Shown here one piece after another: positions 595 to 22,856 of a DNA stretch of 64,000 bases. Numbering within the stretch: position 1 is the stretch's first letter; each line of letters starts with the position of its first letter. Made by a program: the position numbers and the translations under genes. The DNA comes from Methanomassiliicoccaceae archaeon (GTDB lineage: Archaea; Thermoplasmatota; Thermoplasmata; Methanomassiliicoccales; UBA472): contig CAWBKY010000007.1 in assembly GCA_963789555.1 (NCBI GenBank), positions 101,999 through 165,998 on the forward strand, in the 5' to 3' direction. The notes below the pieces were generated by a model, which was not told the DNA's origin, made no database searches, and saw only the letters and a list, made by a program, of their open reading frames with translations.

Positions 595-675
595 GCCCCC
601 TTTCCCGATCTCTTCGGTCCATGATAATTATCGAACATGGCCTGGGGTCGGTCCGGAAACATTTTTATGTCCTCC

Positions 676-686: not shown

Positions 687-700
687 TGCCCGGGATTGGG

Positions 701-2359: not shown

Positions 2360-2361
2360 AG

Positions 2362-4709: not shown

Positions 4710-4733
4710 GTCCCTCGATACCTCGTTCCGGTT

Positions 4734-5348
4734 TTATAGCTTCTTCCGGAACACGTTGAAAATCTCCGCGGTCACATCTTCGATGGGCCGGTCAGCGTCC
4801 ACCAATATGATGTCGCGATCCCTCTCCGCCCATCCCCGATAAGCTCGGTCCACCTTTCGCAGGTAGTCCAGCTTCTCGAACTTGCTCCTTCCGGACCTGG
4901 AGCTCAATCGGTCCAGGGCTTTCTCAGGGGATATCGTAAGAAGGAAAATGGCATCAGGTTCGATGACGACAGGCCGGTTCAGCTCCCAGAGCCATCCCAC
5001 TGGGTCGGCCATGCGGTCCTGCAGCGCCGCGCTCTGATAGGCTATGGTGGAGGCATAGTAGCGGTCGCAAACGACCACCTTGCCCTCTGCCATCCAACCT
5101 TTGATCTGGCCGGTATGTAGGGCTCGGTCCGCCACGAAGAGCAGTGCCTCCGCCGCATCGTCTATGCCCTCTTGGTTGGCCCGCCGCACCGCATCCCCGG
5201 TCCAGAGGGTGGAAGGCTCGGCCGTGACCATGCATTCCCGTCCTAGCTCCTCCCGCACCAGTTCAGCCAATCGATTGGCCATGGTGCTCTTCCCCGAGCC
5301 GTCTATTCCCTCAAGGACGAAGAACGCTCCGCGTTTCATGCGCCTCAA
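4734..5348 (-). CDS. tmk: thymidylate kinase
   Basis: FFVLEGIDGSGKSTMANRL P-loop, DRYYASTIAYQ motif, ~200 aa. Confidence 0.9.
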   Translation of the reverse strand: MRRMKRGAFFVLEGIDGSGKSTMANRLAELVREELGRECMVTAEPSTLWTGDAVRRANQEGIDDAAEALLFVADRALHTGQIKGWMAEGKVVVCDRYYASTIAYQSAALQDRMADPVGWLWELNRPVVIEPDAIFLLTISPEKALDRLSSRSGRSKFEKLDYLRKVDRAYRGWAERDRDIILVDADRPIEDVTAEIFNVFRKKL

Positions 5349-5353
5349 TCTCT

Positions 5354-6822
5354 TCAGCTGAACTTATCCTTTTTCGCCAGGTAGGCATCATAGCTGAGGA
5401 TCAGTTCCTTGGCGGCGAACAGCTCGTCCACCCTCTGCCTCGAGGTGGAGTGCGGGGCGCCCTTTACCAGCTCTGGGTCCTCCTCGGCGATGGCGATCAT
5501 GGCGTCAGCGAAGAGGTCAAGCTCGAACTTGGTCTCCGTCTCGGTGGGCTCGATCATCAACGCCTCCGGGACCAGGGCAGGGAAGTAGATGGTAGGCGAC
5601 ATGAAGCCGTAGTCCAAAAGACGCTTGGCCACGTCCAGGGCGCGTACGTCCTTCTCCATCGTCAGACGTTTCGCGCTCACCACGAACTCATGCTTTCGCA
5701 GCTCGCCATAGGGCAGATCGTAGACACCTTGCAACCTCTGCCTCAGGTAGTTGGAGTTGAGCACGGCGCGTTGGGACACCTCCCTCAGACCGTCCCCTCC
5801 GTTGCGGAGGATGTAGGCGTAGGCCCGCACCAGAACGGCGAAGTTGCCATAGAAGGAGCGCACCTTCCCTATACTGTCCTGGCGATCGAATTCGAGCGCG
5901 TATCGGTCTCCCGTCTTGACCACCCTCGGCACGGGCAGGAACGGCTCCAGGTGGGCCTTGACCCCCACCGGTCCCGCGCCTGGCCCTCCGCCGCCATGCG
6001 GCGTGGCGAACGTCTTGTGCAGGTTGAAGTGCACGATGTCGAAGTCCATCAGGCCCGGCGAGGTGTGCCCCAGGATGGCGTTGAAGTTGGCGCCATCATA
6101 GTAGAGGAGGGCACCTGCGCCATGGACCAGCTTGGCCACCTCTCGGATGCGGCCCTCGAATATCCCTAGGGTGTTGGGGTTGGTGATCATGAAGGCGGCG
6201 GTGCGCGCCGAAAGGGCGGACCTGAGCGCCCCAAGGTCGACGCATCCGTCCGCGTCCGAGGGTATCTCAATGACATTGTAGCCAGCCATGGCCGCGCTGG
6301 CGGGATTGGTGCCATGGGCCGCGTCCGGGACGATGACCTCGATGCGCTTGTCCCCCCGTTTGGCGTGGTAGGCCTTGATGATCAGCATCCCGTGAACTCG
6401 CCTTGAGCCCCGGCGGCCGGTTGCAACGTGACCGCATCCATGCCGGAGATCTTGCACAACGCCCTGTTCCAGCTCGTACATCAGGCGCAGGGAGCCTTGC
6501 ACGGTTCCTCCTCCTGGTACGGGTGCACCGACGTGACCGAAGGTAGGGCGGCCAACTTGGTCGCAGTACTTTGGGATTGTACTTCATGGTGCACGAGCCC
6601 AGGGGGTAGAGGCCGTTGTCCACGCCGAAGTTCATCTGGGACAGGTTTGCGTAGTGCTTCACCACCGCCCTTTCGGGCAGGTTGGGCAGGCAGGCCCTGT
6701 GCGGGACATCCCTTCTGGAAGGTCCATGTTCGTGGTCCGGTGCTTCCGGTGAGGTAGAGGTCGTTCTCCCCGTTCAGTTCGAAGACCAACTGGTCATCAT
6801 AGCGGGCCTGGCGGTACATCAT
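5354..6822 (-). pseudogene. gcvPB: glycine dehydrogenase (decarboxylating) subunit 2, reading frame broken at least 5 times
   Basis: Long C-terminal ORF has [14 protein letters not shown]...HFNLHKTFATPHGGGGPGAGPVG (PLP-lysine region). N-terminal pieces [49 protein letters not shown] and [24 protein letters not shown] sit in different frames. Confidence 0.8.
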
Positions 6823-8141
6823 GTCACCTCCTGCAGCGCGGCGATCAGCCGGTCATGGTCCGAGGGGGTGTGCATCTCGGTGGTGCAAAGCAGCATCTGG
6901 TCCACCATGCGTGGCACGTGGGCTCTGCATCTGCATCCCCGCCGATCACCCCGTGCTTGAGCAGGACCTTGTTCAGTTTCTCGGGGCGGACCGGGGAGCT
7001 GATGACGAACTCATTGAAATGGGAGGCCTCGAAAAGGGGAGATCGAATCCGTGGATATCGTCGATGCGCTCCATCAACTCCTTGGCGTTCTGGATATTGA
7101 TGGCGGCGATCTCCCTGAGCCCCTTCCGCCTACAGGGGCAAGATAGACCACGCTGCCGCCGCCATCAAAGCCTCGTTCGTACAGATGTTGGACGTGGCCT
7201 TGCCACGACGGATGTGTTGTTCCCGGGTCTGCAGGGTCATGCAGAAGGCGCGACGGCCCGAGACGTCCTTGGTCATGCCGATGAGGCGTCCCGGCATCTT
7301 CCGCACATGCTCCATCCGGATGGCGAATATGCCCAGCAGCGGCCCCCCGAAGTTCATCGGGGAACCAAGCATCTGACCCTCCCCGATGACGATGTCAGCC
7401 CCGTACTCGCCGGAGGTGTCAGGATCCCAGGGATATGGGATTGACCCCGACCATCAGCACCGTATCTGGGAACATGCGAGCTTGAGCTTGGGTGCGACCG
7501 GGTCTATGACGCCGAACAGGTTGGGCACCTCCAAGTAGATCCCACAGACCGCATCGTCGTATTTGGCGCGCAGGTCGTCCAGGTCCGTCCCTCAGTGAAC
7601 GGGTCATAAGCGTATTCGACGATCTCCATGCCCAAGCCGCCGTGTAATTGCGGAGGACGCTCCGTTTCTCCCAGCTAATGGCCTCTGGCACCAGGAACTT
7701 GCCTTCGCGGCCGGATGCGGAAGGACATGGTGGCCGCCTCGCCCAAGGCGGTGGAGGCATCGTAGTTGGAGGAGTTGACCACATCCATCCCGGTGAGCTC
7801 CGGGACATCATGCTCTGGTACTCGAACATGGTCTGGAGCATGCCCTGGGAGATCTCCGACTGGTAGGGCGTGTAGGAGGTGAGGAGCTCGGACCTGGAGA
7901 CGATGTTGCGGACCGCGGCCGGAACGAAATGATTGTAGACCCCCGCGCCAAGGAAGCTGGCATGTCCTCGGTCGTGACATTGGGGCGTAGCATCTCCCTG
8001 ATCGTCCTGACCACCTCCGATCTCGCTCAGACCGTCTGGGAGGTCCAGTCCTCCCATCCTCACATCCTCCGGGATGTCGTCGAAAAGTTGCTCCACATCC
8101 TGTAATCCGAGGTAGTCCAGCATCCTGCGGTCCAAGGCCAT
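6819..8141 (-). pseudogene. gcvPA: glycine dehydrogenase (decarboxylating) subunit 1, reading frame broken many times (at least 8 by my reading)
   Basis: Conserved blocks are scattered over all three minus frames: LQDVEQLFDDIP, VRTIREMLRPNVTTEDMPAS, FLGAGVYNHFVPAAV...[60 protein letters not shown]...[23 protein letters not shown]. Stop TGA overlaps the gcvPB ATGATG start. The 5' boundary is approximate. Confidence 0.75.
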
Positions 8142-8199
8142 GTATATCTGCCTGGATTGACCATCGGCGGGATATATACCTTTTCGAGGCACCGATCGG

Positions 8200-8677
8200 C
8201 CAGGTGATCGAAGAGAGGCCAGTGAGTTCGAGGTTCAGACTGCGAAATCCTTCGGGGCCGGTCAACACCGGCCTCCCTGACCAACCGGGAGAAGTAGGAG
8301 GGAGCGATTCCACGTCCTTGATCTCGCCTTTGACGATGCGTCGCCAGCCTGACCCGTTTCTCCGCATCATATTGGCACGCCGTTGCATGAAAGGTAATGT
8401 TTGAGGAGACGACACGAGTTGGCCACCCTTCCGGTCCCAATCGGTGAGGATGATCGCGGTCTTGCCTTCTCGGGCCAACTGCTCCGCCACATGCAGGATG
8501 CCGTCCCGGCTCTGCACCTGGATCATCTCCCCATGCACGCCAGCAGGTTCAGGCCGCCCACGTCCCGACGCCCTTCGACCAGGATGACACATGGTCAGGA
8601 GGCCGTTCGGCCAGCTCGTCCAAAGGAGCAGGCCGAGCTGCCGCAACCGTTCCTCTGGCATCCCAGCGATCGCTCAT
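8200..8677 (-). pseudogene. small Toprim-domain protein (UPF0292-like), frame broken at least 3 times; 3' boundary uncertain
   Basis: Pieces VILVEGRRDVGGLNLL, VHGEMIQVQSRDGILHVAEQLAREGKTAIILTDWDRKGGQLV and IVKGEIKDVESL / SYFSRLVREAGV lie in different frames. GGAGG sits 7 nt upstream of the ATG at 8677. Confidence 0.45.
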
Positions 8678-8699
8678 CGCCATGCCTCCAATATCCCAT

Positions 8700-8975
8700 G
8701 ACATTGATCAAGGTCGACAATCGAGTGGACATCGTCTTGTCCCTGACGGTCTGACCACGCACTATCGCCGCCCTGCAACGGAACAGCGTCGCCCAACGAG
8801 CCTCTCCACCTCTCGATTGGCCCTTGCCGTCCTCTGGCGGTTCCTTTACCTTGACCTGGAAACGCCTCCTCCATTGGTCGTATGCCCCAACTCGCTGCGG
8901 CTAGCCCCCGGCACCACATGGACGTCCAACTCCGTCCCCTGGCCCTTGCTCTGAGCGCCTTGGAGCTATTCCACG
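8700..8975 (-). pseudogene. DUF167/YggU-like small protein, frame broken about 3 times; boundaries approximate
   Basis: Fragments in three frames: TELDVHVVPGASRSELG, FQVKVKEPPEDGK, ANREVERLVG, AIVRGQTVRDK. They match my recollection of the DUF167 pattern (V.P.A...lkv.v.apP.dGkAN..l...L......v.iv.G..sr.K). Confidence 0.4.
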
Positions 8976-9074
8976 GCTCAGCCTCAGGGCCCTGATTTAT
9001 ATAACATTAATCACCACGGCTGGACACATAAAGTCTACGCATAAGTCTCTTATATCGTCAACCGAATCTGTGCG

Positions 9075-9748
9075 ATGATGGCGCCGCCCCCCGGTAAGCT
9101 CGAGTTCAATGAGATCACCCTCATCTATCGGAACGAGAGCAAGGGAGGAGAGCCCACCGAGGTGAGGAGGGACTTCTATCCGGCCTTCAGGGAGTATCTA
9201 AGAGGCTCAAGACGGAGAGCGAGGACGAGGTGCGCAAGGACCCCACCTCCATGAAGGCCTCGAGCATGATGAGCGAGATCAAGAAGGTCACGCAGAAGGG
9301 CTCATCGATATTCCAGTACCGCATGTCGAAGATAATGAGCATGGCCCTGAGGGCGGGCATGGGCAGCAAGGTGGACACGACCAGGCTCACTCCGGAGGAG
9401 AGGGACTTCTTCGATGCCGTGGTGGAGGAGGTGGTGGCGTGCAGATCTTTTCGCTTGGAGGGGGAGAAGGTGGCGACGAGGCAGGTCGGTGCCTACATCG
9501 CCCTGTTCGGTACCGGTGAGGGAAAAGATGGAAGGCTGCCACACCCGTTCAATGCAAGGTCCTGTGGGGGCGAGGAGAGCGGGGGCGCCATCTGGTACTT
9601 GATCCGAGTGCTCGAGGACATCCCCCCTTTCACTAGCGGAAAGCGTCAATATCGTCTCTTGAGGGAGGATGTCGTTTATATGCCGGCAACGTTTGCTTGC
9701 GTCCTCGTTAAGAATGGCAAAGCAGTGGAGATAAGCGTCCCATCCTGA
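9075..9748 (+). CDS. GINS-complex subunit-like protein (Gins51/Gins15 type); apparent frame break near 9200
   Basis: Frame 1 gives MMAPPPGKLEFNEITLIYRNESKGGEPTEVRRDFYPAFREYL, then RLKTESEDEVRKDPTSMKA...IFQYRMSKIMSMALRAG...LTPEERDFFDAV in ORF 9230..9748. C-terminal IRVLEDIPPFTSGKRQYRLLREDVVYMPATFACVLVKNGKAVEI looks like a GINS B-domain. The break sits at an AA dinucleotide (9200-9201). Confidence 0.5.
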
Positions 9749-9847
9749 CATAATTTTCGTTCAATCCAGCATTCTCTCGTCGATAGTCATTTGATAATCC
9801 TGGTTGCAAAACCTTTATCTATCATTATTTAATATGGCGACCTGGCC

Positions 9848-9924
9848 GGGCCCGTAGCTCAGCTAGGTTGAGCGATCGGCTCTTAACCGATAGGCCGTGG
9901 GTTCGAATCCCACCGGGCCCGCCA
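9848..9924 (+). tRNA. tRNA-Lys (anticodon CUU), genomically encoded CCA
   Basis: Manual cloverleaf: acceptor GGGCCCG/CGGGCCC, D-arm GCTC..GAGC, anticodon stem ATCGG/CCGAT with loop CTCTTAA (anticodon CTT), T-arm GTGGG-TTCGAAT-CCCAC, discriminator G, then CCA. Confidence 0.9.
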
Positions 9925-9945
9925 CTATCCATAGCTAGTCGTCCG

Positions 9946-9969
9946 TTTTTAAATTCATTCGGGGTTTTT
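9946..9969 (+). terminator. two oligo-T tracts downstream of tRNA-Lys
   Basis: TTTTT at 9946-9950 and 9965-9969, 20-45 nt after the tRNA 3' end. Archaeal RNA polymerase commonly terminates at oligo-T. Confidence 0.35.
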
Positions 9970-10122
9970 ATGAACCGAGCCAAATGATCGAAAAAACACT
10001 TCATTCAGCTATTTCGCCATAACATAGTTATCACTGACCATCAACCCAATGGATGTGGTGTCACACCTCGATCCTCTTCTCGAGCACACCCTCAGTCGTT
10101 ATTACGGATAGGGGATCGAGGC

Positions 10123-12500
10123 CTATTGCCTCGCCATCGCGATGCGGATGGCATCCTCCGGATTGACCATATGGTCAGAGTTCTCTGCAGATTCGATGAT
10201 CGCTAGTTGGACACCCTTGACCTTCCCGTTGAAGGCGTTCCCCTTTGGGCCATAGTCAGGGGAGACCGGTGCGCCGCTATCCTCGCCAACGTCGCAACCG
10301 TCGTCAGCAGAGAAGATCATGGCGTGCGTCATGGGGATGGTCCCTTCGCCGGTCTTCTTACCGTCGACGAACAAGGTCACCTTGCCGCCCTTGCCCAGGC
10401 CACCGCCCGCGTAGGCGAACTCCATTCGCACCTGATGCTCGCCCGATGGCAAAGGCTCCTCGGACTCGACGAAGAAGTGATGCACGCCTGCCACATTGTA
10501 GCAGTACTTGAGCTTGCCATTCATGGCATAGAGGCTCCAACCTCCGATGTTGGCCCCCTGAGCGATGATCACACCTTCGGCCCCACCTTCTGGCACGATT
10601 ATCTGCGCGGTGACCGAGTGGGACTTGTTCTTGAGGCTGATGACACAGTTCTCCGCTAGGCGCCCCATGCCTCCGAAAAGGAGCTGCGTGTTCCCCTTGA
10701 CGAGGGTGGGACGACCGGCAGTGTCCGGGTTCAGCTTTTCGACGACACGGTCGTCGATGGGCAAGACCTTGTATCGCGTAGCCTCGATCAGCCAGAGGCG
10801 CTGAAGCTCGTGGAGCTTCTCTGGCATCTGTTTGGAGAGGTCGTTCGCTTGGCTCCAGTCCTTGGAACAGTCGTAGAGCTCCCATACGTCGTCATCGAGG
10901 GCAACGGTCTTCCGGCCCACCAGGATCCACGGGGTTCCGTGCTTGGTCACCGCCGCCCATCCTTTGTGGTATATGCCACGGTTTCCGAAAATCTCGAAGT
11001 ATTGGGTCTCATGCCGTTCCGCCGCCTTGGCGTCGTTGAAGGAGTAGAGCATGCTGACGCCCTCGATCGGGTCTTGCTGTATCCCGTTCACAGACACGGG
11101 CTCGGGCAAACTTGCGGCCTCAAGAACGGTCGGCGCGATGTCAATGATATGACTGAACTGCGAGCGTATCTCCCCCTTGGCCTTTATCCCGTTCGGCCAA
11201 TGGACGATGGTTCCATTACGGGTCCCGCCCCAGTGTGATGCGACCTGCTTGGTCCACTGGTAAGGGGTGTTCATGGCATGCGCCCAACCAACGGCATAAT
11301 GGTTATACGACTCCGGTCCTCCGAGCTTATCGATATGCTGCATCAGGAACTCGGGGGTCTCAAGGCCTGCCAGACCGTTGAAGTTGGCCATCTCGTTGTA
11401 GGCACCGTTGATCGTCCCCTCCGCTGATGCCCCATTGTCACCGATGATGTAGAAGATGAGAGTATCATTGAGGATCTGCATCTTCTCCAACGAATCGAAC
11501 AACCTTCCGACATGATGGTCGGTATATTCCATGAAGCCAGCGTAGACCTCCATCTGTCGGCGCAAGATGGGCTTGAGGTCCTCCGGCATGTCATCCCAGG
11601 CGGGGATCTCCTTGTGGCGGGCGGTGAGCTGACAGTCCTGCGGGACGACACCGAGCCGTTTCTGACGTGCCAGGGTCTCCTCGCGCAGCTTGTCCCACCC
11701 CTGGTCGAACTGACCTTTGTATTTGTCGGCCCACTCTTTCGGTACATGGTGGGGGGCATGTGTCGCCCCAGGCGCGAAGTAGACGAAAAAGGGCTTATCG
11801 GGTGCCAATGCCTTCTGCTGACCGATCCAGGCGATGGCCTTGTCGGTCATGTCCTCGATCAAGTGATAGCCTTCTTCCGGCGTCTTCGGCGGTTCCACCG
11901 AATTGGTCCCCTCATACAAGGTCGGATACCACTGGTTCGCCTCACCGCCAATGAATCCATAGAAATATTCGAAGCCGCCCCCACCAGTTGGCCATGCATC
12001 GAACGGTCCGACCGGGCTAGCCTCCCACACCGGCACCTCATGGCATTTACCGAACTGTGCCGTGTTATAGCCATTGAGCTTCAGGGTCCGGGCCAAGGGG
12101 GACATGGTGTTCGGAAGGACCGAACTGTAGCCTGGCGCACCGGTGGCGGTCTCGGTGATCCCACCCATGCCGCAGGAGTGATGGTTGCGTCCCGTCAGCA
12201 GGGCCTGGCGGGTCGGGGAGCAGAGGGCGGTGGTGTGGAAGCGGTTATACTTGAGACCATTCGAGGCCAGCTTCTCCATCCTCGGCGTATGGCAAGGGCC
12301 TCCGAACACGCTCGCAGACCCGAACCCGGCGTCATCGATCAAGCACAATCAGAGACATTGGGCGCGCCCTTGGGGGGACGCAGCTGCTCGATCGGCGGGA
12401 AACTGGTGTCTGGATCCTTCGCATCGTATGTGATCAGTTTTGGCTGAACGGTGTTCAGCATCGGGAGATGGGTACGGTGTTTTTTGTCTTCATTGGACAT
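10123..12500 (-). CDS. large cytoplasmic Cys-type arylsulfatase (~790 aa class); frame disrupted within 12335-12350
   Basis: Formylglycine signature HTTALCSPTRQALLTGRNHH, then GKCHEVP, FVYFAPGATHAPHH, IIGDNGAS. No signal peptide. My translation from the ATG at 12500 gives MSNEDKKHRTHLPMLNTVQPKLITYDAKDPDTSFPPIEQLRPPKGAPNV, then a stop. The expected SLIVL strand is in a second frame and IDDAGFGSASVFGG in a third. Confidence 0.85.
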
Positions 12501-12748
12501 GTCGATCCTAATCCTCTGAATTGAGCATTATTGGAATGTCGCATCTAATAAACCTTTCATGGCGACTCTCTTATCATATGTCAGCCTTACCAGGATGCAT
12601 AATTATATATTATTATTTTTAGATAAACATTTCAATTTATAGGTTTCAAAGAAGTTGCCAATCACATTTCAAAAGTAAAAAAAATCGCCCGCCCAGAGAT
12701 GGGGCCCAAGGCGTTGGCGATCATAAGAAAAATAGAGGAAAAGAATCT

Positions 12749-12823
12749 CTAGCCTTTCTTCTTCTCTTCCTTCTTTTCTCCATGTTTCTTTATTGCAGCG
12801 ACCTTACCGACTGTTCCTACCAT
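12749..12823 (-). CDS. candidate 24-aa lysine-rich micro-ORF
   Basis: GGAGG, a 7-nt spacer, then ATG GTA GGA ACA GTC GGT AAG ... GGC TAG, encoding MVGTVGKVAAIKKHGEKKEEKKKG. It lies in the AT-rich gap between the sulfatase and FN3 genes. No homology recognised. Confidence 0.25.
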   Translation of the reverse strand: MVGTVGKVAAIKKHGEKKEEKKKG

Positions 12824-13526
12824 TTTATTTCCTCCAGTCCTTTATTCGATCAGTGAGATCGGAATCCCATTGGTCGGATGTATGAACAATGAATGAACGA
12901 ATTATAAAATGGTATGGATATTACCCTGGATATGAAGGATACGTCTTTATTTCATGGCCGATCAAAGGCATCCGAAAAAGTTTCTATTAATCATGGCGAC
13001 TGCAACCCCGGTTCTTATCTTAATTTCGATCAATATCTGAGTACATCCTTGTCGAGATAGACCACCATAGTCAATGGATCGATGGAGGCATCGTAGATAC
13101 TATCCCAATCTCTAACCTGTACTTTGTCGAGGCTATCATCTTCCATCGGATTCTTCCGAGCTTAAATCCTTTGAACGATACTCAAAAACCGATGGGCATA
13201 GCCCTCTAGTCATTATCCGTTACAAAGATCAATGCTCAGAGGTCCAATCCTACAAATATATTCTCGGGGGATTTAATTATAATATCAAAATTGACAATAA
13301 TAATGGAGAGTAATGGCTTCTTGAGCATTATCATTAGTGACACGATTTTATCCATGCAATGTGAGAGCAGGACCCGAATGTTACAAGATGGAAATCATTA
13401 AATCGTTCCCTTACAAGTTGTAATACCAACAGACCCTCTTCTTACACCAGGTTCCATTCGATGTTACCAATGACGGATCCTATTAGGGGGATATAGGGGT
13501 GGAGAACTTGAATATTTGAAAAAAAG

Positions 13527-16500
13527 ATGCTAACAGTGATCATGATCGTGGCTGTCGCGGTCATGATGATCATACCGGGTTTGGCCACCATAACGGTCGA
13601 ACCGAGTACTTCTACGATCGAGAAAACAAAGATAGGCGCAAGCCTTAGTTGGGTAATCAACGCTCCGACGGAGCCACTCAACGTGTCGGCCGATCCAGGG
13701 AACGGGTTCATCTGGTTGTGGTGGGACCACCCCCTCAGTCAGGGGAGCGACCTGATCAAGAATTACACCATCTTTAGAGGCACGACGTCAGGGCGGCGAA
13801 GATATGGTGACACCGATCGCTGAAGTAACAGTAGGTGTCAACTATTACAACGACACGGATGTCACGAACGATGCCCCCTATTATTACATATTGAAGGCCC
13901 AGAGCGATGCAGGCGTCAGCATATCCTCTGCCGAGGTCTCTGCGACCCCGAACGACTCGGGATCACCGCCTAGTGGACCTCTGAACCTTGTCGCCACGAA
14001 CCTGTATTATTCCGCTCAACTGAACTGGTCAGCCCCATCAAATGCTGGGACCACACCGGTTAGGATGTTTGATATCTATCGTAATCCGTATCCACCAGGT
14101 ATGCCCCTGACCGATGAGGTCACATCCGGGGGATGGGTCACTGGGTATGAGGATTCCTATGTCCTTCCAGGTGAAGAATACAACTATACGGTAAGAGCCA
14201 TCAACAGCTTTGGGGCCGGCTCAACGAACGTCACTGTCCGTGTGGCTGGGACCGGGCTCTATCCCGAGGTACCAGAGAACCTGACTGCATCAGGCGGTAA
14301 TTGCTCCGTGGAGTTGAATTGGGACGATCCATCAAATCCATCTGAATCTGGAATCTCCCGATATGACATCTACCGTTCCTTGACCTCTAGTTCAGGTTTT
14401 GTTCTTATCGGTAATTCGTCGACCTATTTCGGAATGTTAATACCATTCTATACCGATTTCAACCTGATCAATGGTCAGACCTACTATTACAAGGTGAAAG
14501 CAGTCAACACGAAAGGCGAAAGCTCTTTTTCGAACGAGGCATCTGCGACACCAAATCTGCAGGCACCCCACGTTTTTGCCTACCCAGGGAATTCTCGGGT
14601 TCTCATCATGTGGAGTCCGGTCCAGAATGCCACAGGTTACGACATTTTTAAGATATGAGACGCCGGGTACAGAAACTTTAAAGGAAACAACTGGAAAATA
14701 TGTCAATTACTGGCTCGATAATTTGACGACCAATGGCGTCGCCTTACTTCTATAAAGTAAAGGCTAAATTTGACGCAACAGATGGACCATTTTCAAATGA
14801 GGCGACCGCCACCCCTTATGTTGGAAGCCCTCCAACGGCACCAACGAACATGATCGCCACGCCGGATGGTTCTAGTGTAGAAATGAATATCCCAAAAAGC
14901 AACGATACCAACATCTTGATAGGATATGAGATATACCGCGGTGACAGCTCAGGATCCGAAGTTCTCATCGAGAACGTGACATTCTACAACTCGTTATACT
15001 GGTACATGTCTCCTTATTATACGGTATCAGTATCAAGGACATTACAATGGTGTGGATAGTGTCACATACCATTATACTGTGAAGCTCCGTCAATCTATTC
15101 GGGACTAGCGGGTTCTCGAACGAGGTCTCTTCCTTCGCCAGTCCCACCGGGGATGTACCTTTGGGCGATATCACCCTGAGCGCCACGGCAGGTACTGCCA
15201 ACGTAACGTTGTCCTGGAGCAACCCATCGTACATGGGTACGGCCAACCTGCTGGATTATACCATTATGCGGGATAACGGGTCAGGCTGGAACTATGTCAA
15301 CTTCATGTTTGCCCCGGCAGGAACTCAGACATGGGTGGACACATATGTCACATCTGGTGTGACTTATCATTACATGGTCATTGTTGGGAATAATTATGGC
15401 GATGCTGTGAAAGGTTCCAATGTGGCCACCGCCTCAATCTCTGGGTCTGCGGTGGAACCAAGCAAACCATTGAACCTCCATGCCGAGCCAGGTAACAATC
15501 ATGTGCAGCTTAGCTGGGACCCTCCAGCGAACAATGGTGGTTCAGCAGTAACCAGTTACACGGTGCTCAGGGGTACTCCTCCGGATCCATAACCACTGTG
15601 ATCACAACCACTACCGGGGCAGGTACGACCTTTGATGATACGACCGCATTGAACGGTCAAACATACTGGTACGCGGTCAAGGCCACCAACGCTCAGGGCA
15701 CAGGACCAGCCTCTGACGCGACCTCGGCGGTACCTGCGGCCCCATCCGGACCACCAGGCAAGCCCGAAGGACTGGTGGCGACCCCAGGCAACGCCCTGGT
15801 GGTGTTGGGATGGAACGCGCCGAGCAGTAGTGGCAGTTCAGCCATCACCAGGTATGACATATTCCGTGGGAACAGCTCGGCGAACATAAGCACGACCGTA
15901 CTGGGAAGCGTCAACGCCGCCTCGGCCTTGACATACACCGATAGTTCCCTCATAAATGGACAAGAATACTGGTACGCGGTGAAGGCGGTCAACACCCAGG
16001 GTTCTGGCCTTGCCTCTGACCCGGCCCATGCGGTCCCGAGCGCCACCGGGACGGTGCCTGGTGCTCCCACCTCGGTCACCGCCGTCGGCGGTCCAGGCTA
16101 CATATTGGTCTCCTGGGCGGCACCATCGAATGTCGGCTCAGGAGTGAGCAACTACCTGGTGTTCCGCGCCACCACATCGGGCGGTCAGGGGAGCACAGCG
16201 CTCGCCAACTTGACCGGGAGCTTGCTCCAGTACAACGATACCTCAGCCGTTCCGGGTACGCCCTACTTCTATAAGGTGATGGCATGGAACTCATATGGTG
16301 ATGGTGCGTCCTCAGCCGAGGTAAATGCCACCGCTGCAGCCACTGGGCTACCTTCGAACCCGACCAGCCTCACGGCGACGCCAGATAAGGGCAAGGTCAT
16401 CATCACCTGGGGCGCGCCGACATCTGACGGAGGGTCAGCCATAACTGGTTACAATGTGTTGCGTGGGTCCAGCGCTTCAACGTTGGTAGTGATCGGCAAC

Positions 16501-16743
16501 ACCACCGCGAGCATCCGCAGCTTCACCGATGAGGACGTCGAGGCAGGGACGACCTATTTCTACAGTGTCGTGGCGGTGAACGCCAATGGGAACAGCGCCC
16601 AACCGACACCGGTTAGCGCTGTCCCGGAATCGTCGGATGGCGGTAACGGAACCGACAACACCTGGCTCTACGTAGGTGCTGGCATTGCCGCCGTGGCGGT
16701 CATCGGAGGGGCGGCCTACTTCCTCATGAGGAAGAAGAAGTGA
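13527..16743 (+). CDS. giant cell-surface protein: signal peptide, 10-11 tandem fibronectin type III domains, C-terminal TM anchor; 6 apparent frame breaks
   Basis: N-terminus MLTVIMIVAVAVMMIIPGLA. Recurring ~95-aa unit P..P.nL.a..G...v.LsW..P...G.s.It.Y.i.R......................D....nG..YyY.V.A.N..G.g..S. C-terminus WLYVGAGIAAVAVIGGAAYFLMRKKK. Pieces are ORFs 13527, 13804, 14733, 15161 and 15598. Breaks at ~13792, ~14650, ~14742, ~15030, ~15084 and ~15571. Confidence 0.8.
13650..16620 (+). repeat. tandem array of divergent FN3-domain coding repeats (protein-level repeat, ~285 nt period)
   Basis: The repeat is visible in translation (for example NGQTYWYAVKATNAQG, NGQEYWYAVKAVNTQG, GTPYFYKVMAWNSYG, GTTYFYSVVAVNANG). 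The DNA copies are diverged and I saw no long identical stretches. Confidence 0.7.
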
Positions 16744-17047
16744 GCCGATCTGTCAAACCATTTCCCAAAATCTCTTCTCCCCCCGGGGGCGGTCTTTTAA
16801 CCGTCCGAACCCGGGCATCCTTTTCTTCTGACCCGACCTTGAGGATGGTCAATCAGGTTTAGGACCAACGAAACCGCTTTCAAGAGGTTGATGGACCAGC
16901 CCTCGCTCGCCATCCCATGATACAACCAGAAGTCCAACTGATGATGAAGGACGACGCATGAAAATGATGGTTAAGAGATTCATTGAGACCAAATATGCTC
17001 TCGATCTAAGCAGCAATCCTGATTATGGTCCAGGGCATACAGGCATC

Positions 17048-18223
17048 ATGGCCCGAAAGGAACAAGATGCGAATTGCCCTGACGCGTTCCACATCCTCGC
17101 CAAACCAAGAGGGGCGGTCTGCAACCTGGCCTGTACATATTGTTTCTACACCTGCAAGTCCGACCTTTATCCAGAGGGAACGTTCCGGATGACGGATGAG
17201 GTGCTGGAAAGCTATGTTCGACAGGTCATCCAAGGCCATCGGTCCCCCGAGGTCACCATCGCCTGGCAAGGAGGGGAACCGACCTTGATGGGTCTTGATT
17301 TCTTTAAAAGGGCGATCGAGCTCGAGAGGAAATATCTTAGACCAGGCCAGAGGGTCCTTAACACCATCCAGACCAATGGGACCCTTCTTGATGATGATTG
17401 GTGCTCGTTCTTCCACGAGCATGGTTTTCTGGTGGGGATATCCATCGATGGTCCAAAGGACATGCACGACCATTATCGTGTGGACAAAGGTGGAAGGCCG
17501 ACATTCGACAAGGTGATGAACGGCCTTCGATTGTTGCAGAGGTTCAAGGTGGAACATAACGCCCTGGTCACGATCAACGCCATCAACTCGGACAGACCCC
17601 GAGATGTCTACCGATTCCTTCGGGACGAGGCCGGCCTACAATATATCCAGTTCATCCCCATCGTCGAAAAGGTTCAGGATAAAGATGCCGGGTCTGGCCT
17701 TAAGGTCACGAGGGAGTCGGTCAGCCCCGGCAAATATGGTCGGTTCATGATAGGGGTGTTCGACGAATGGGTGAAGAGGGACGTCGGCCACATCTTCGTA
17801 CAGTCCTTCGATGTGGCCTTGGCGAATTGGTATGGTGAGCCTCCCAGCGTTTGCACCAACGCCATAACTTGTGGCACAGCCCTCGCCCTGGAGCATAATG
17901 GAGACCTGTATTCCTGCGACCACTTCGTCGATGAGGACCATCTCCTGGGGAATATCCTGGAAACACCGATGGTCGAATTGGTGGGCAGTGAGAGACAATC
18001 AAGGTTCGGAGCGAGCAAAGCGGCACTACCACGCTATTGCCTGGAATGTGATGTACGATTTGCTTGTCATGGTGGTTGTCCCAAGGACCGTTTCATCCGC
18101 TCCCCGCATGGGGAGACGGGACTGAACTTCCTTTGCTCTGGATACAAATCCTTCTATCACCACATCGACCGACCGATGAAAGTGATGTGCGGATCTGTTG
18201 AATCAGGGTCGACCACCCTCTGA
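17048..18223 (+). CDS. anaerobic sulfatase-maturating enzyme (radical SAM with SPASM domain)
   Basis: HILAKPRGAVCNLACTYCFY (CX3CX2C), GGEPTL, C-terminal Cys clusters CGTALALEHNGDLYSCDHF and CLECDVRFACHGGCPKDR. The ORF opens at 16958. I prefer Met-31 (17048) because it places the radical-SAM cluster at the usual distance from the N-terminus. Confidence 0.85.
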   Translation: MARKEQDANCPDAFHILAKPRGAVCNLACTYCFYTCKSDLYPEGTFRMTDEVLESYVRQVIQGHRSPEVTIAWQGGEPTLMGLDFFKRAIELERKYLRPGQRVLNTIQTNGTLLDDDWCSFFHEHGFLVGISIDGPKDMHDHYRVDKGGRPTFDKVMNGLRLLQRFKVEHNALVTINAINSDRPRDVYRFLRDEAGLQYIQFIPIVEKVQDKDAGSGLKVTRESVSPGKYGRFMIGVFDEWVKRDVGHIFVQSFDVALANWYGEPPSVCTNAITCGTALALEHNGDLYSCDHFVDEDHLLGNILETPMVELVGSERQSRFGASKAALPRYCLECDVRFACHGGCPKDRFIRSPHGETGLNFLCSGYKSFYHHIDRPMKVMCGSVESGSTTL

Positions 18224-18414
18224 TATTATGACAATGAACGATGCTTAGAACGATCTCCGATGGGCGAAGGCCATGAGCGCCCTGGGTCATCCATTAGTCC
18301 TTACGGGCGATAGCGGGAACTCCCGACACGGGTCATCTTTTTGAGGTTTTAGCATCTGGCGTTTCAAAGGCCCCCTCAAAACATTTAATCCCATAAGCTA
18401 CAATGTTAACATAG

Positions 18415-18810
18415 GTGTGGACATTGGAAATCGATTTCGACGAGGCCATCAGCCTCTGCCGCAAGGTGAGGGGCGATCTCGATGAGCTGTTCGATGCGAT
18501 CAGGGGCAGGGCTTTCTTCGACATCGGATATGAGATAGGGAACGTGGCCAGGAGCGGATTGGGGTTCGAGAGGATGATGCCGGAGCTGGAGGAGCTGGAG
18601 AAGTGTCTCCACGAGCGTTGCCTCAATACCTTTAACGACACCTATGCTCGAATATTCGACCTGGTAAATTTCTATGACCACCTCATCGACCTCATCCAAG
18701 CCAATAAGGTGCATTATAGCAAGGGGGAACGGATGCATGCGAAGCTCATGGAATGGAGGAGCACCGCCGGACGCTTTGCGCAGTTCGTCTGCCATATGGA
18801 TGGCGATTGA
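18415..18810 (+). CDS. hypothetical protein (131 aa)
   Basis: GTG-initiated ORF with genome-typical GC3 codons. CATTTAATCC lies ~25-30 nt upstream as a possible TATA box. No family recognised. Confidence 0.45.
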   Translation: MWTLEIDFDEAISLCRKVRGDLDELFDAIRGRAFFDIGYEIGNVARSGLGFERMMPELEELEKCLHERCLNTFNDTYARIFDLVNFYDHLIDLIQANKVHYSKGERMHAKLMEWRSTAGRFAQFVCHMDGD

Positions 18811-18821
18811 GCATCAACGGT

Positions 18822-19419
18822 TCAAGCCCACTTGACGCTTCCTAGCTCCAAGGTCATCATGGTGAGGTAACGGAGCGCCTTGCTACCCCTCTCCGTCAGG
18901 CTGTAATCCCCTCGGTCCTGGTTCTGCGCAATGAACCCAGCCGCCAGTAATTTTTGGATATGGAACAGCAGGTTCCCACCCTTCAGTCCGGTCCTCTGCG
19001 ACAACATCGAATAGGTCATCGGCTGGGAGTTGAGCAATTTCATCATCTCCAAGACGCTGAGGGTTCGACAAAGGGTCAACCACATTTCGGACCACCGATT
19101 CCTCGTCCATCTTATCGATGAGAGCTCGGAGGTTCGCCTCCGAGACATACGAGTTCTGAGTCCTGGCCAAACGGATGTGGCGTTCGAAAAGCGTCCCGAC
19201 GCCGTCGAAGCATATGGAGCACTTCTTGTAGGGGGAATTGGCCCGAGCCTTATCCAGCTCCCTCCTCATCTCCGCGATGTGGCTTTCCTCCACCTTCTCC
19301 TCCCCCGCCAGAGCCGCGCTCCTATCGAGGAAGTCCGTGAAGAACCCCCTGCTTTTGACATAGCCCTCGCAGTTCCTCACCATGCATCGGTCCAGTTCCT
19401 CGGTCGATCTCCGCAGCAA
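18822..19419 (-). CDS. transcription regulator with C-terminal ArsR-like winged helix; apparent frame break near 19070-19085
   Basis: ORF 18883..19419 supplies an unknown N-domain (MLRRSTEELDRCMVRNCEGY...). ORF 18822..19148 supplies LSVLEMMKLLNSQPMTYSMLSQRTGLKGGNLLFHIQKLLAAGFIAQNQDRGDYSLTERG, a wHTH. The two overlap in different frames. Confidence 0.6.
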
Positions 19420-19561
19420 GCCTGCCCGTCACCATGGAAGGGTCGATGTCCGAGCTTCTGGATGACATATTTCTTGAGGATAGGAGCTGGTCCATCTTCC
19501 TATCCCGAGGTCCTGGATCGCTCTGAGCAGCTCTTCGTTCGACCTCGATCCCTCTCCTTCT

Positions 19562-19633
19562 TCCTGACGGCCATACCTATGTCCCTCTGGGCGAGTTATA
19601 ATAGTTGTAGCTGCTACACAATCCTGACGGCCA
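19562..19633 (+). promoter_or_regulatory. two perfect copies of TCCTGACGGCCA plus a palindrome, upstream of the MT2 gene
   Basis: TCCTGACGGCCA at 19562-19573 and 19622-19633 (60 nt apart). GTAGC-T-GCTAC palindrome at 19607-19617. The second copy abuts an ATTATATATTTTT TATA-like run (19634-19646), about 55 nt before the ATG at 19702. Confidence 0.4.
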
Positions 19634-19701
19634 ATTATATATTTTTGACCCGTCGCTAAGAGCCTAAGGAGCATATTCATCCCCAATACAAGGTGAGGAC
19701 A

Positions 19702-20802
19702 ATGGCAGACACAATGAACCACATCGAGAGGGCAATGGCCTCGATCATGAACCAGCCGGTCGACAGGCTGTCCACCTACCCCATCGCCTGCGGCGTCAAC
19801 CGCAGGCTGGTGGGCGACGGCAAGATGTCCTATCCCGACTGGGCCAACGACCCTAAGAAGTTCGCCGAGGCCGCCATCGCCGGCTACAGGTACTTCGACT
19901 GGGACTGGTACTTCGGCCTCATGGACCTGTCCGTCATGGCCGGCGACATCGGTTGCCACGTGCGCATGGACGACCAGAACACCCCGTTCGTGGACAAGAC
20001 CATCATCCACAACCCGGAGGACTATGAGAAGCTGCACGTCCCGGACGTGCACAAGGGCCGCTGCGGCGTCATCATCGAGGGCACCAAGATCTTCTCGGAG
20101 AAGCTGAAGAACGACATCATCACCTCCGGCTTCATCGAGGGCCCGCTGCTCGCGCTGACGCAGACCGCCGGCGCGGAGAAGGTGTTCATGGACATGATCA
20201 ACAACCGGTCCGCCGTGCACAAGGGCCTGGAGACCATGACCCAGTTCGACGTCGACTTCACCAACGCCTTCGCCACCACCACCGCCCCCGGCCTGTGCTG
20301 GGACTACCTGTGGGGCAACTACTCCTGCCTGGGCGACAAGGAGTACGACGAGTTCGAGGGCCAGCACAAGTACGCCGGCAAGCTGAACGAGCTGACCACC
20401 AAGGTAGGCAAGGCCTTCTGCATACACAACTGCGCCGACCTGCCCCACCTGGACAGCCAGATCAAGGCCTTCAAGCCAGTGATCTACAGCATGGCCTACT
20501 ACCCGCTCATCCCCGGAAGCCCATCGCCCAAGGAGGCCATCGGCAAGGGCTACGCGGACAGCTGCCTGCTCGCCGGGCAGATCGACCCCCAGCTCTTCGT
20601 GCGCGGCACCGTGGAGAAGATGGAGGCCACCACCATGAAGCTGATCCAGGAAGTGAAGACGGCGCTGTGCCAGCGCGGCCTGCACTCCCGGTACGTGATC
20701 GCTTCCGGTTGCGAGGTCCCGCCCGCCGTCAGCACCAAGATCGAGAACATCAAGGCCTGCGTCGACACCGTGAAGAAGTACGGCCAGATCCAGTGCGCTT
20801 AA
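19702..20802 (+). CDS. methylcobamide:CoM methyltransferase family (MT2; MtaA/MtbA-like, URO-D fold)
   Basis: URO-D-family length and layout. Candidate zinc ligands in CIHNCADL (H-x-C) and IASGCEVP. GGTGAGG lies just upstream of the ATG at 19702 (the ORF track opens at GTG 19693). Confidence 0.7.
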   Translation: MADTMNHIERAMASIMNQPVDRLSTYPIACGVNRRLVGDGKMSYPDWANDPKKFAEAAIAGYRYFDWDWYFGLMDLSVMAGDIGCHVRMDDQNTPFVDKTIIHNPEDYEKLHVPDVHKGRCGVIIEGTKIFSEKLKNDIITSGFIEGPLLALTQTAGAEKVFMDMINNRSAVHKGLETMTQFDVDFTNAFATTTAPGLCWDYLWGNYSCLGDKEYDEFEGQHKYAGKLNELTTKVGKAFCIHNCADLPHLDSQIKAFKPVIYSMAYYPLIPGSPSPKEAIGKGYADSCLLAGQIDPQLFVRGTVEKMEATTMKLIQEVKTALCQRGLHSRYVIASGCEVPPAVSTKIENIKACVDTVKKYGQIQCA

Positions 20803-20809
20803 ACCCTTT

Positions 20810-20840
20810 AAGGGGCGCAAGGCCCCTTCTATCCATTTTT
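20810..20840. terminator. GC hairpin plus T5 between convergent genes
   Basis: AAGGGGC (20810-20816), 5-nt loop, GCCCCTT (20822-20828), followed by TTTTT at 20836-20840. It lies between the MT2 stop (20802) and the stop of the convergent hydrolase (20839-20841). Confidence 0.5.
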
Positions 20841-21742
20841 ACACGGACCTATCGACATTAGGATCTTCTATCTTGGCGAGGAACGAACGAATGATGTCCA
20901 GATAATCGCTGGGGTTCTCCAATTGAGGATTGTGCGACGCATCCTTCACAATCTCCAGCTCAGAGCCAGGCACGAGCCGGTGATAGTACCTGGTGCTCTC
21001 CGGGCAGGCATCGTCATACTCGCCGCAGATGAAAAGGGTGGGAACGTCGATCCTGAGCCAACTGATCGGTGCAATCGAAGTTTTGCATATAACCGGTTAT
21101 CTTGAAGTCCCTCCAACCCAGGAAATGGTCCGCGATCTCCCGAGAGCTCTTCGAATGCGCTCTTTTCATGCACTCAGGAGGCGGCTCCACCCGGCAAAGG
21201 TGCCGTCGGTTGTACGCTCGGACCGCGCGTTTGAACTCAGGCCTGGAGGTATCGCCTGACACCTCGCCCATGCGTACCGCCTCCCTGAGCTCTAAAGGCA
21301 TCTGTTCCAGATATCTTCGCATGTCATCGTAGGAGCGCGGTATGCTCATGGAAGGGCTGGAAAGGACCATGCTCTTTACCCCTTGAGGCCTCAAGGACGC
21401 ATAATAGTTCACCACCAGGATGCTCCCCCAGGAATGTCCGAACAGATGGACCTCTTCCAGGCCGAGGTGTTCCCGGATCAACACCACCTCTTCCACGAAT
21501 CTCTCCAGCGTCCATAGGGATAGGTCGCTTGACCGGTCCGAGTTGCCGCAACCGAGCTGGTCGTAGAAGATGATCGGCCTCTCCTCGCCGAGCACCTGCA
21601 TCGGCTCAAGGTAATCGTGGGGGAAACCGGGGCCGCCATGAACGACCAGCAGGGGAGCGCCCGGTCCATTTCCGACCACCTTGTACCAAACGCTCCCTCC
21701 GGTGACCTGAACGCGACCCTCACCCGATCTCGGTCCACTCAT
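20839..21742 (-). CDS. alpha/beta hydrolase, proline iminopeptidase family; apparent 1-nt frame break near 21050
   Basis: VVHGGPGFPHDY, nucleophile elbow GHSWGS. After LAQ the frame fails. My translation one frame over gives IDVPTLFICGEYDDACPESTRYYHRLVPGSELEIVKDASHNPQLENP, the expected Asp/His C-terminal part. Confidence 0.75.
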
Positions 21743-21878
21743 CGCGACAGCATCTGATTAGGTCACGATAAGATGTTCGGACGGTCCCAATTTCCTGCGA
21801 ACATCAAACGGTCTTTGGTCCGACCGCTCCAACCTATATATCAGGCGTTACTATTGCCATCATAACGAAGGCAGGCCC

Positions 21879-22643
21879 ATGATCAACGTCTATTTCGTCG
21901 GCACAGCGGGAAGCGGGAAGAGCACCCTGGTATACGCGTTCCAACAGTGGATGACGCTGCAGGGCCTGGACACGATAACGGTGAACCTCGACCCCGGGGC
22001 GGAGCAGATACCATACGAGCCAGACGTCGATATCAGGGACTGGGTCAAGGTCGAGGAGGTCATGAGGGATTACGGGCTGGGCCCGAACGGGGCGCAGATC
22101 GTGTGCGCGGACCTCATGGCCTTGAACTCCAAGGAGCTGGTCGAGACAGTGGAGAAGTTCCGCACCAACTACGTTCTCATCGATACCCCGGGCCAGATCG
22201 AGCTCTTCGCCTTCAGGCAGTCCAGCCAGGTGATCATAGACGCCTTGGGCAGGGACCAATCCTTCTTGGCATTCCTCTCCGACCCAGCATTGGCCAGGAC
22301 CGCTTCGGGATATGTCTCGATGCTCATGCTCTGCGCCACCGTGCACTTCCGTTTCAACATCCCCTTCATCAACCTGCTCTCCAAGTCCGACACCTTGGCC
22401 GAGAAGGACCTGCTCCGCGTGCTCGACTGGTCGCAGGAGCCTGACGCATTATACGATGGCCTGATGCAGGAGCAGGCATCCAGCCGGAGCGTGCTCTCCA
22501 ACGAGCTTTTCTATGCCCTGCAGAACATCGGGGTGTACCGGGAGTTGACCCCGGTATCGAGCGAGATCCCCTTTGGTCTGGAGGAATTGTACAACATCAT
22601 CCAACAGTCATATGAGGGAGGAGAGGACCTCAGCAGGGATTGA
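21879..22643 (+). CDS. GPN-loop GTPase
   Basis: VGTAGSGKST P-loop, GLGPNGA (GPN motif), LIDTPGQIELF. Size and layout match the archaeal GPN-loop GTPases. CCTATATATC lies ~40 nt upstream. Confidence 0.85.
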   Translation: MINVYFVGTAGSGKSTLVYAFQQWMTLQGLDTITVNLDPGAEQIPYEPDVDIRDWVKVEEVMRDYGLGPNGAQIVCADLMALNSKELVETVEKFRTNYVLIDTPGQIELFAFRQSSQVIIDALGRDQSFLAFLSDPALARTASGYVSMLMLCATVHFRFNIPFINLLSKSDTLAEKDLLRVLDWSQEPDALYDGLMQEQASSRSVLSNELFYALQNIGVYRELTPVSSEIPFGLEELYNIIQQSYEGGEDLSRD

Positions 22644-22685
22644 GGCGCCAACGAGCGATATGACCGTTCGTCAACAGGTGAGCAT

Positions 22686-22856
22686 ATGTGGCCTTGGAAG
22701 AAGGAGGGTAAGGTGGAGAGGAGGAAGGTGGGGACATACCACTGCCCCAAATGCAACTCCACGAACATCGAACAGGAGGTGGCCCTGACCGGATACATCA
22801 TCATCGGTCGTTCCCTGGTCTACCACTGTCACGATTGCGAGTATCGAGGGATGATC
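22686..22856 (+). pseudogene. small zinc-ribbon protein gene lacking its 3' end and stop codon
   Basis: AGGTGAG SD-like sequence then [60 protein letters not shown] has two CxxC pairs. Beyond ~22856 the open frame is simply antisense to PAN with no plausible protein sequence. Confidence 0.45.

Follow-up and report, generated by a model that had tools for sequence, protein, structure and literature searches.

The window considered here is the whole stretch of 64,000 nucleotides that was analysed from a contig of a Methanomassiliicoccaceae archaeon, and its subject is a gene for a Cys-type sulfatase that lies, together with the gene for an anaerobic sulfatase maturase (anSME), in the DNA that follows a tRNA-Lys(CUU) gene. 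It is probable that the locus holds a standard formylglycine sulfatase system, which came from bacteria and resides in a variable interval behind tRNA-Lys, and that a segment carrying a multi-FN3 gene was inserted later, in this strain only.

The tRNA-Lys locus

Two relatives, L001 (a contig of 1.42 Mb) and L002, are collinear with the window at 87-96% nucleotide identity outside the segment 12930-16999 and serve as the main comparison. The features that bear on the sulfatase are as follows (aa, amino acids; ORF, open reading frame).

9848-9924, plus strand: tRNA-Lys(CUU) gene (ARAGORN; Rfam tRNA model, 70.6 bits), left border of the variable interval
9925-21878: variable cargo interval of 11.95 kb, from tRNA-Lys to the GPN-loop GTPase gene
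10123-12500, minus strand: gene for a Cys-type S1 sulfatase (Pfam Sulfatase, alignment to PAS), 791 aa if repaired, catalytic Cys in LCSPTR
12749-12823, minus strand: small ORF of 24 codons (MVGTVGKVAAIKKHGEKKEEKKKG), in the conserved part (12501-12934) of the gap upstream of the sulfatase gene
12930-16999: strain-specific insertion of 4,070 bp, made up of an AT-rich part of 597 bp, the FN3 gene, and a further 256 bp
13527-16743, plus strand: gene for a multi-FN3 surface protein (Pfam fn3; three-frame reading), ~1073 aa if repaired
17048-18223, plus strand: anSME gene, radical SAM/SPASM (TIGR03942, 4K36), the ORF of which reaches back to 16958 in the inserted DNA
21879-22643, plus strand: GPN-loop GTPase gene (ATP_bind_1), 99% identical to that of L001, right border of the variable interval

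The interval thus bordered contains the sulfatase gene, the small ORF, the FN3 insert, the anSME gene, and genes for a 128-aa protein, an HTH regulator, a URO-D protein, and an alpha/beta hydrolase. The position of the sulfatase gene beside tRNA-Lys(CUU), as first described, is confirmed: it lies on the minus strand, convergent with the tRNA gene, and ends 199 bp past it. In Rfam searches (at E <= 1 for 9-19 kb and at gathering scores for the entire window), the tRNA was the sole match.

The sulfatase and its maturase

The sulfatase matches the Pfam Sulfatase model (PF00884) at 6.9e-65 (219.8 bits against a cut-off of 25). Within its ORF, the formylglycine motif reads LCSPTRQALLTGR, and the C/S-x-P-x-R core with the extended signature, CSPTRQALLTGR, aligns to the FGly51 site of PAS, the arylsulfatase of Pseudomonas aeruginosa. 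The orthologue of L001, which is intact at 791 aa, aligns with PAS (1HDH) over residues 46-570 at 8e-63. Possible degeneracy of the active site was checked in this alignment, and all of the catalytic and metal-binding residues of PAS (D13/D14, C51, R55, K113, H115, H211, D317/N318, and K375) have counterparts, which are also visible in the window ORF; the catalytic Cys is Cys93 in L001 numbering, i.e., Cys43 of the window ORF. The enzyme can therefore be assigned, by alignment, to the S1 formylglycine-dependent family, within which it resembles the S1_4-type arylsulfatase PAS. Its C-terminal domain of ~220 aa has only a weak ConA/LamG-like match (E 0.008). No signal peptide or transmembrane segment was found in the sulfatase, which is predicted to be cytoplasmic.

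The original prediction described a ~790-aa sulfatase with an intact motif. The motif and the Cys-type family stand, whereas the ORF is not intact in the assembly. The longest sulfatase ORF covers 10123-12348 and encodes 741 aa, and the other 49 N-terminal codons (from an ATG near 12500 and ending ...PPKGAPNV) lie in a different frame. A three-way alignment places two window-specific insertions of one base each, ten bases apart, at this point (C at 12344 and G at 12354, plus strand); together they shift the frame by +2 at codon ~50 and create an in-frame TGA, and deleting both restores PNVLIVLIDD.

The maturase scores 469.3 bits with TIGR03942, an NCBIfam equivalog (trusted cut-off 349.45), and matches the anSME of Clostridium perfringens (PDB 4K36) at 8e-63. 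It carries the CX3CX2C motif (CNLACTYC), and the auxiliary-cluster (SPASM) Cys residues of 4K36 (C255, C261, C276, C317, C320, C326, C330, and C348) are all aligned. Comparison with relatives indicates that its start is likely at 17048 rather than 16958; one nucleotide inserted at 18191 changes its final ~15 residues. The three models proposed for checking the locus, i.e., Sulfatase, anSME, and fn3, were thus all matched, and exact-sequence look-up found no record identical to the window sulfatase or anSME.

In the window, the start codons of the sulfatase and anSME genes are 4.55 kb apart, in line with the 4.5 kb first noted. In L001 and L002 the two genes are divergent neighbours, about 660 bp apart. 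Moreover, they form a tandem at unrelated loci, namely, in L084, a Methanomassiliicoccales metagenome-assembled genome (MAG), where the tandem lies by a gene for an IF-2-type translation factor, and in L085, where the sulfatase is a 40%-identical paralogue. Because the pair recurs in tandem at unrelated loci, functional coupling is supported, and the comparison of gene neighbourhoods argues for a true Cys-type sulfatase/maturase pair.

A different arrangement is seen on L083 (2309-13007), in which an 86%-identical sulfatase is accompanied by a second sulfatase of ~784 aa (41% identical), an SBF-family transporter, and a SulP/STAS sulfate permease; no anSME was found within 7 kb of the L083 sulfatase. 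From its gene content, this locus is possibly a fuller cluster for sulfate-ester utilisation.

Origin of the enzymes and the variable interval

The full-length identity of the sulfatase is 81-85% with arylsulfatases of Variovorax, Mesorhizobium, Acetobacterium bakii, and Anaerolineales, and 83-86% with the copies that other Methanomassiliicoccales MAGs and the L083 contig (435 kb) carry. Full-length homologues are also found on Mycobacterium plasmids (76.5% identity). In a scan of GTDB species representatives with GcvPA, the closest species was L003 (Methanomassiliicoccaceae MAG MFD00905.bin.2.116) at 93% identity, and GcvPA of other Methanomassiliicoccales was 63-68% identical to that of the window. 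Since the sulfatase exceeds 80% identity between domains while GcvPA reaches only 64-68% between genera of the order, a horizontal origin of the sulfatase is well supported, and the transfer presumably ran from bacteria to archaea. In a neighbour-joining tree, the sulfatases of the window and L001 form one clade with two metagenomic proteins, and this clade adjoins another that holds NCBI Methanomassiliicoccales proteins, apart from labelled bacteria, which is compatible with one entry of the sulfatase into the order. The phylogeny proposed originally was thus followed up with a rough tree of the sulfatase: the identity levels speak for horizontal origin, whereas the tree leaves the direction undecided. 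As for the anSME, its identity outside its own lineage is 69-77% with metagenomic proteins that have no label, among them the anSMEs of L084 and L085 (72-76%), and 60-67% with proteins bearing a bacterial label. L001 and L002 have both genes as well, with nucleotide identities of 87-94%.

The site in which the pair resides is variable. Across the order, the gene order CoaBC-dNK-GcvPB-GcvPA-Toprim-PF1765-hyp231-tRNA-Lys(CUU) is kept, with tRNA-Lys(CUU) after the same gene in 13 or more Methanomassiliicoccales loci, and the DNA beyond the tRNA varies. In four distant relatives (L019, L020, L024, and L028), the GPN-loop GTPase gene follows 20-120 bp past the tRNA and is itself followed by the gene for the proteasome-activating nucleotidase PAN, so that the site is 'empty'. 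In L014, the interval between tRNA and GTPase gene is filled with 5.9 kb of unrelated genes; the cargo after the tRNA in L013 and L014 includes 5TMR-LYT, DUF4386, HTH_10, and Zn-ADH. The corresponding interval of L001 measures 8.1 kb, and in L002 an additional 2.8 kb (DUF3243, DUF998) separates the sulfatase gene from the tRNA. In L003, homology to the window ends exactly at the tRNA 3' end, and the next 7.4 kb hold genes for DUF998, a B12-binding radical-SAM protein, CbiX, and a GT87 glycosyltransferase, after which an anSME gene follows. Synteny of the block across the lineage, which was checked as a possible objection to horizontal acquisition, is therefore not conserved. The view that the tRNA-adjacent region consists of horizontally acquired, variable DNA is supported, and the interval behaves as a recombination-prone variable stretch rather than as a recognisable mobile element. 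In other words, the part of the original argument that linked tRNA adjacency to acquisition can be retained on the strength of a foreign-like sulfatase and a variable site, and it does not draw its strongest evidence from composition, nor was an integrase found among the ORFs scanned, or a tRNA-derived repeat.

The tRNA gene itself differs among relatives. Introns occur in the orthologous tRNA-Lys(CUU) genes of L019 (2402-2461) and L020 (1929-2004), where they are ~21 nt long and lie in the T-loop, and of L024 (5715-5815), where an intron of 26 nt lies at 37/38; L028 (~6420-6536) apparently has both kinds. ARAGORN run without its intron mode missed or mis-called these intron-bearing genes.

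Frameshifts: assembly error or decay

Several observations weigh against the interpretation of the locus as a working sulfatase system of bacterial origin. As assembled, the sulfatase is broken ahead of the metal-binding Asp pair, and the gene is also split in L002, through a different indel. L003 has an anSME (85% identical; region 1-8225) with no sulfatase within 7.4 kb, and so the maturase may have another client; from its neighbourhood, the L003 enzyme would be either an orphan or the servant of a distant client. The arrival of the cargo is unexplained, as no direct repeat of the tRNA 3' end was found across 9700-23000 (chance matches only) and no integrase domain among the ORFs scanned. 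No transporter for sulfate or sulfate esters is present in the interval. Finally, the neighbour-joining tree is rough and poorly labelled and does not settle the direction or the number of transfers.

Some of these points could mean that the sulfatase and FN3 genes are genuine pseudogenes, that the islet is decaying, dispensable cargo, and that the anSME is either kept for another substrate or decaying as well. The in-frame stop at codon ~50 of the sulfatase gene, the independent indel in L002, and the L003 anSME that lacks a sulfatase neighbour would all fit such a history, as would the changed anSME C-terminus and the state of the FN3 gene, which is spread over five ORFs, the frame changing at least seven times from 13790 to 15600 but not in 15600-16743. 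The presence of an FN3 surface protein between the two enzymes, as originally proposed, holds with regard to its repeats and anchors, whereas its gene is split as assembled.

However, damage of the same kind extends to genes for which decay is difficult to justify. When indels were polarised with L001 and L002, 65 window-specific events were found (38 insertions and 27 deletions), only 5 of which were associated with homopolymers; such a non-homopolymer, insertion-biased spectrum is unlike natural prokaryotic decay. In a translated comparison with L001, the broken genes are those for GcvPB (N-terminus), GcvPA, a Toprim protein, a PF1765-like protein, a GINS-like protein, the HTH regulator, the alpha/beta hydrolase, DUF2240, and the anSME C-terminus. 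Among these, the GcvPA, GcvPB, Toprim, PF1765-like, and GINS-like genes are intact in both L001 and L002 and syntenic across the order, and housekeeping genes are split in L002 too. The sulfatase body, in turn, has few window-specific substitutions (2-8 per 300 bp). Because non-homopolymer indels affect syntenic housekeeping genes that are intact elsewhere, they look like the result of poor consensus polishing rather than of biological decay. Most likely, errors in the consensus of a long-read metagenome assembly account for the frameshifts of the sulfatase and FN3 genes. For the sulfatase, an artefact appears probable from these comparisons, and the pseudogene explanation, although it accounts for some of the observations, is unlikely.

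Most of the window-specific indels (44 of the 65, each of 1-3 nt) lie in 6392-9789, and window-specific substitutions reach 8-11% across 6.6-9.0 kb. The left edge of this patch is sharp, at ~6390 inside GcvPB, and 3143-6390 is free of indels relative to L001; the segment 6392-9789 has the look of a part of a long-read assembly that was left unpolished or had low coverage. A second patch of broken genes, at 54.4-56.9 kb, has only small ORFs, one of them UPF0047. The sequences of the relatives are metagenome assemblies with 'contig_N'-style names, and these names, together with the MFD label of L003, point to Nanopore assemblies from soil or sediment; MFD stands for Microflora Danica, a Nanopore-only project on Danish soil and sediment (PMC12313526). 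More generally, error-rich patches of long-read MAGs can mimic pseudogenes.

Proposed function and substrate

If the system works as its families do, the events may be pictured as follows. The sulfatase would have entered from bacteria through inter-domain transfer and become common to the closest relatives, after which the lower-GC, FN3-bearing segment of 4.07 kb would have landed between the sulfatase and anSME genes in this strain only. The cytoplasmic anSME would oxidise Cys93 of CSPTR to formylglycine without oxygen, co- or post-translationally; such O2-independent maturation would suit a strict anaerobe unable to use the O2-dependent formylglycine-generating enzyme (FGE). The mature sulfatase would then split small sulfate esters, once they are imported, into sulfate and an alcohol or phenol. 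Because the sulfatase has neither signal peptide nor transmembrane segment, small imported esters such as aryl sulfates, not polymeric glycans, are the probable substrates.

The use of sulfated host glycans, which had been raised initially, has found no support. None of the ORFs scanned was identified as a gene for a glycoside hydrolase or for polysaccharide utilisation, and the nearest relative that bears a name is a MAG from soil or sediment; the PAS-like character of an arylsulfatase that lacks a signal peptide likewise lends the idea no support. The description of the host as methanogen-like rests on taxonomy (Methanomassiliicoccaceae) and on an HdrD-like gene, and no mcr or methyltransferase-corrinoid genes were found in the 64-kb window.

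The genes that follow the anSME in the interval are listed here.

18424-18810, plus strand: conserved hypothetical protein of 128 aa, after the anSME gene in the window, L001, and L002; absent from L084 and L085
18822-19575, minus strand: HTH (ArsR-like) regulator gene, frameshifted in the assembly
19702-20802, plus strand: URO-D family protein, weakly MtaA/CmuA-like (Pfam URO-D, 2.8e-40), a divergent allele
20839-21742, minus strand: alpha/beta hydrolase gene, with a frameshift at 21055

One of these neighbours invites a bolder interpretation. The ~791-aa arylsulfatase is >80% identical across Proteobacteria, Firmicutes, Chloroflexi, and Methanomassiliicoccales and is also plasmid-borne, and it could be a recently and widely mobilised trait for one abundant sulfated small molecule of anoxic soils and sediments. 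The reaction would then feed the energy or carbon metabolism of an H2-dependent methylotrophic methanogen, with a sulfated methyl or phenolic donor unmasked for the URO-D/MtaA-like neighbour, rather than serve sulfur scavenging. If this were true, organosulfate turnover would be tied directly to methanogenesis. The URO-D protein falls far below the MtaA/MtbA cut-offs and is not linked to the enzyme pair in L084 or L085, and we regard this proposal as speculative and rather improbable.

Composition and the FN3 insertion

One explanation, in line with the original prediction, is that the whole of 9848-18223 is a single, recently integrated island that targeted tRNA-Lys. Apart from the tRNA adjacency, this explanation can draw on cargo that differs among relatives, with the break in L003 homology exactly at the tRNA 3' end, and on the GC content of the interval, which is lower than that of its flanks (0.543 for 9925-21878 against 0.607 outside; 0.595 for the whole window). 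However, sliding GC and tetranucleotide analysis, which had been proposed as a check, confirmed the low-GC block only in part: the 2-kb windows from 11.5 to 16 kb are the only ones that deviate in composition, with a peak at 12501-14500 (GC 0.448; tetranucleotide distance z 5.1, the maximum of the window). The sulfatase gene is host-like (GC 0.587, GC at third codon positions (GC3) 0.76, tetranucleotide z -0.5 to -0.7), and the anSME gene is only mildly low (GC 0.537, GC3 0.64, GC z -1.6, tetranucleotide z 0.7). It is therefore not the sulfatase that gives rise to the low-GC signal but the intergenic DNA together with two-thirds of the FN3 gene, on its 5' side.

The locus also has at least two histories. 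The sulfatase and anSME genes are common to L001 and L002, whereas the FN3 segment is unique to the window strain: 12930-16999 is matched by only 164 bp in L001 and 132 bp in L002. The segment as a whole has a GC content of 0.515, its AT-rich part one of 0.394, and the 5' part of the FN3 gene one of 0.499. The sulfatase/anSME block is thus composite, by comparison with these relatives, and the FN3 insertion is separate from the enzyme pair. Moreover, the variable interval runs on to 21878, past the end of the proposed island, and, as noted above, neither an integrase (among the ORFs scanned) nor a direct repeat of the tRNA 3' end (across 9700-23000) was found. A single integration event is accordingly very unlikely. 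In the interpretation that we prefer, an older enzyme pair with a later insertion, a compositional 'island' signal can stem from an adjoining insertion instead of from a truly foreign gene.

The protein encoded by the inserted gene has a hydrophobic signal or transmembrane start at the N-terminus, a transmembrane anchor at the C-terminus, and numerous N-x-S/T sequons. Its best homologues align over the full length but at only 39-45% identity, and since all of the named ones belong to Methanomassiliicoccales, it represents a fast-evolving surface protein typical of the order rather than an import from another domain. A match in L013 was considered as an orthologue at the same site and was rejected, as it is a different protein (SBBP/FN3/CarboxypepD_reg). 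No terminal direct or inverted repeats were found around the 4.07-kb insertion, only repeats internal to the FN3 gene and chance matches.

The AT-rich gap of ~1 kb between the sulfatase and FN3 genes was described correctly (12501-13526; 1,026 bp, GC 0.38-0.39). The small ORF in its conserved part has a GGAGG ribosome-binding site, an upstream TATA-like box (TTTATAAT), and a downstream hairpin with a T-run. The Lys/Glu-rich peptide of 24 aa that it encodes is identical in the window, L001, and L002, and all six of the DNA substitutions in L001 are synonymous. Together with the 128-aa protein, which has no Pfam or NCBIfam match, the small ORF was considered as part of a wider sulfatase module; this was rejected, as both are absent from L084 and L085. 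That the radical-SAM/SPASM enzyme is a maturase of RiPPs (peptides made by the ribosome and modified after translation), acting on this or another peptide instead of on the sulfatase, is hardly credible: the conserved ORF does adjoin the enzyme, SPASM maturases of RiPPs do appear as weaker matches, and L003 has the enzyme with no sulfatase beside it, but the anSME equivalog is passed (469 vs 349 bits) with every RiPP-maturase model far under its cut-off, the pairing with a sulfatase is seen in four independent contexts (L001, L002, L084, and L085), and the peptide has no Cys or Ser target motif and is missing where the pair occurs in tandem.

Other observations in the window

The URO-D gene shows 20-26% window-specific nucleotide differences without frameshifts, is 73% identical to L001 at the amino acid level, and has an unusually high GC3 (0.95), with flanks that are ~90-95% identical. 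It looks like an allelic replacement through recombination with a divergent lineage, as far as these identities can tell. At the junction 22856-22857, the window lacks about 2.1 kb that L001 (15808-17927) and L002 have, and with it a squalene-hopene-cyclase-like gene and the C-terminal 161 codons of PAN; either the DNA was really deleted or the assembly contains a mis-join. Farther along (33769-36557 and 60657-61784), the window encodes an AMP phosphorylase (DeoA-like) and a type III RuBisCO, i.e., the archaeal AMP salvage pair, and the HdrD-like CCG/4Fe-4S protein.

Comparison with known systems

Sulfate esters make up a large share of the organic sulfur of soils and sediments, and sulfatases are usually credited to bacteria. 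If functional, an anaerobically matured sulfatase would bring archaea of the methanogen guild into organosulfate cycling. NCBI already labels homologues from Methanomassiliicoccales MAGs 'arylsulfatase', and the literature searched contained no account of a sulfatase or anSME in Methanomassiliicoccales and no characterisation of the 790-aa family. In evolutionary terms, the sulfatase offers a clear case of recent transfer of a very highly conserved enzyme, for which we infer the direction from bacteria to archaea.

With regard to the site, the interval resembles tRNA-linked genomic islands and integrative elements in that the cargo starts at the tRNA 3' end and varies among close relatives and in that 'empty' sites exist. 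It differs from them in that no integrase (among the ORFs scanned) and no att duplication were found and in that the deviating composition is not uniform, being strong only at 11.5-16 kb.

With regard to the enzymes, PAS/AtsA of P. aeruginosa (1HDH) is the best match of solved structure; it keeps the metal and catalytic residues and the C-x-P-x-R motif, and both proteins are of the Cys type and have no signal peptide. However, the window sulfatase is ~255 aa longer, with an N-terminal extension of 45 aa in addition to the C-terminal domain, and PAS is matured aerobically. In length and architecture, it is the same as the ~790-aa bacterial 'arylsulfatase' family, to which it belongs, although its host is archaeal; this family may be linked to mycobacterial AtsA/AtsD. 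The maturase, in turn, is like anSMEcpe of C. perfringens (4K36-4K39) and the anSME (ChuR) of Bacteroides thetaiotaomicron in its radical SAM CX3CX2C motif, in the two auxiliary 4Fe-4S clusters of its SPASM domain, and in the location of its gene beside that of a sulfatase, whereas here the host is an archaeon and 4 kb of inserted DNA parts the two genes. Moreover, many secreted glycan sulfatases are served by the Bacteroides system, whereas a single enzyme, predicted to be cytoplasmic, is present here. Both enzymes are members of textbook families with an ordinary mechanism, and it is the archaeal host that is unusual.

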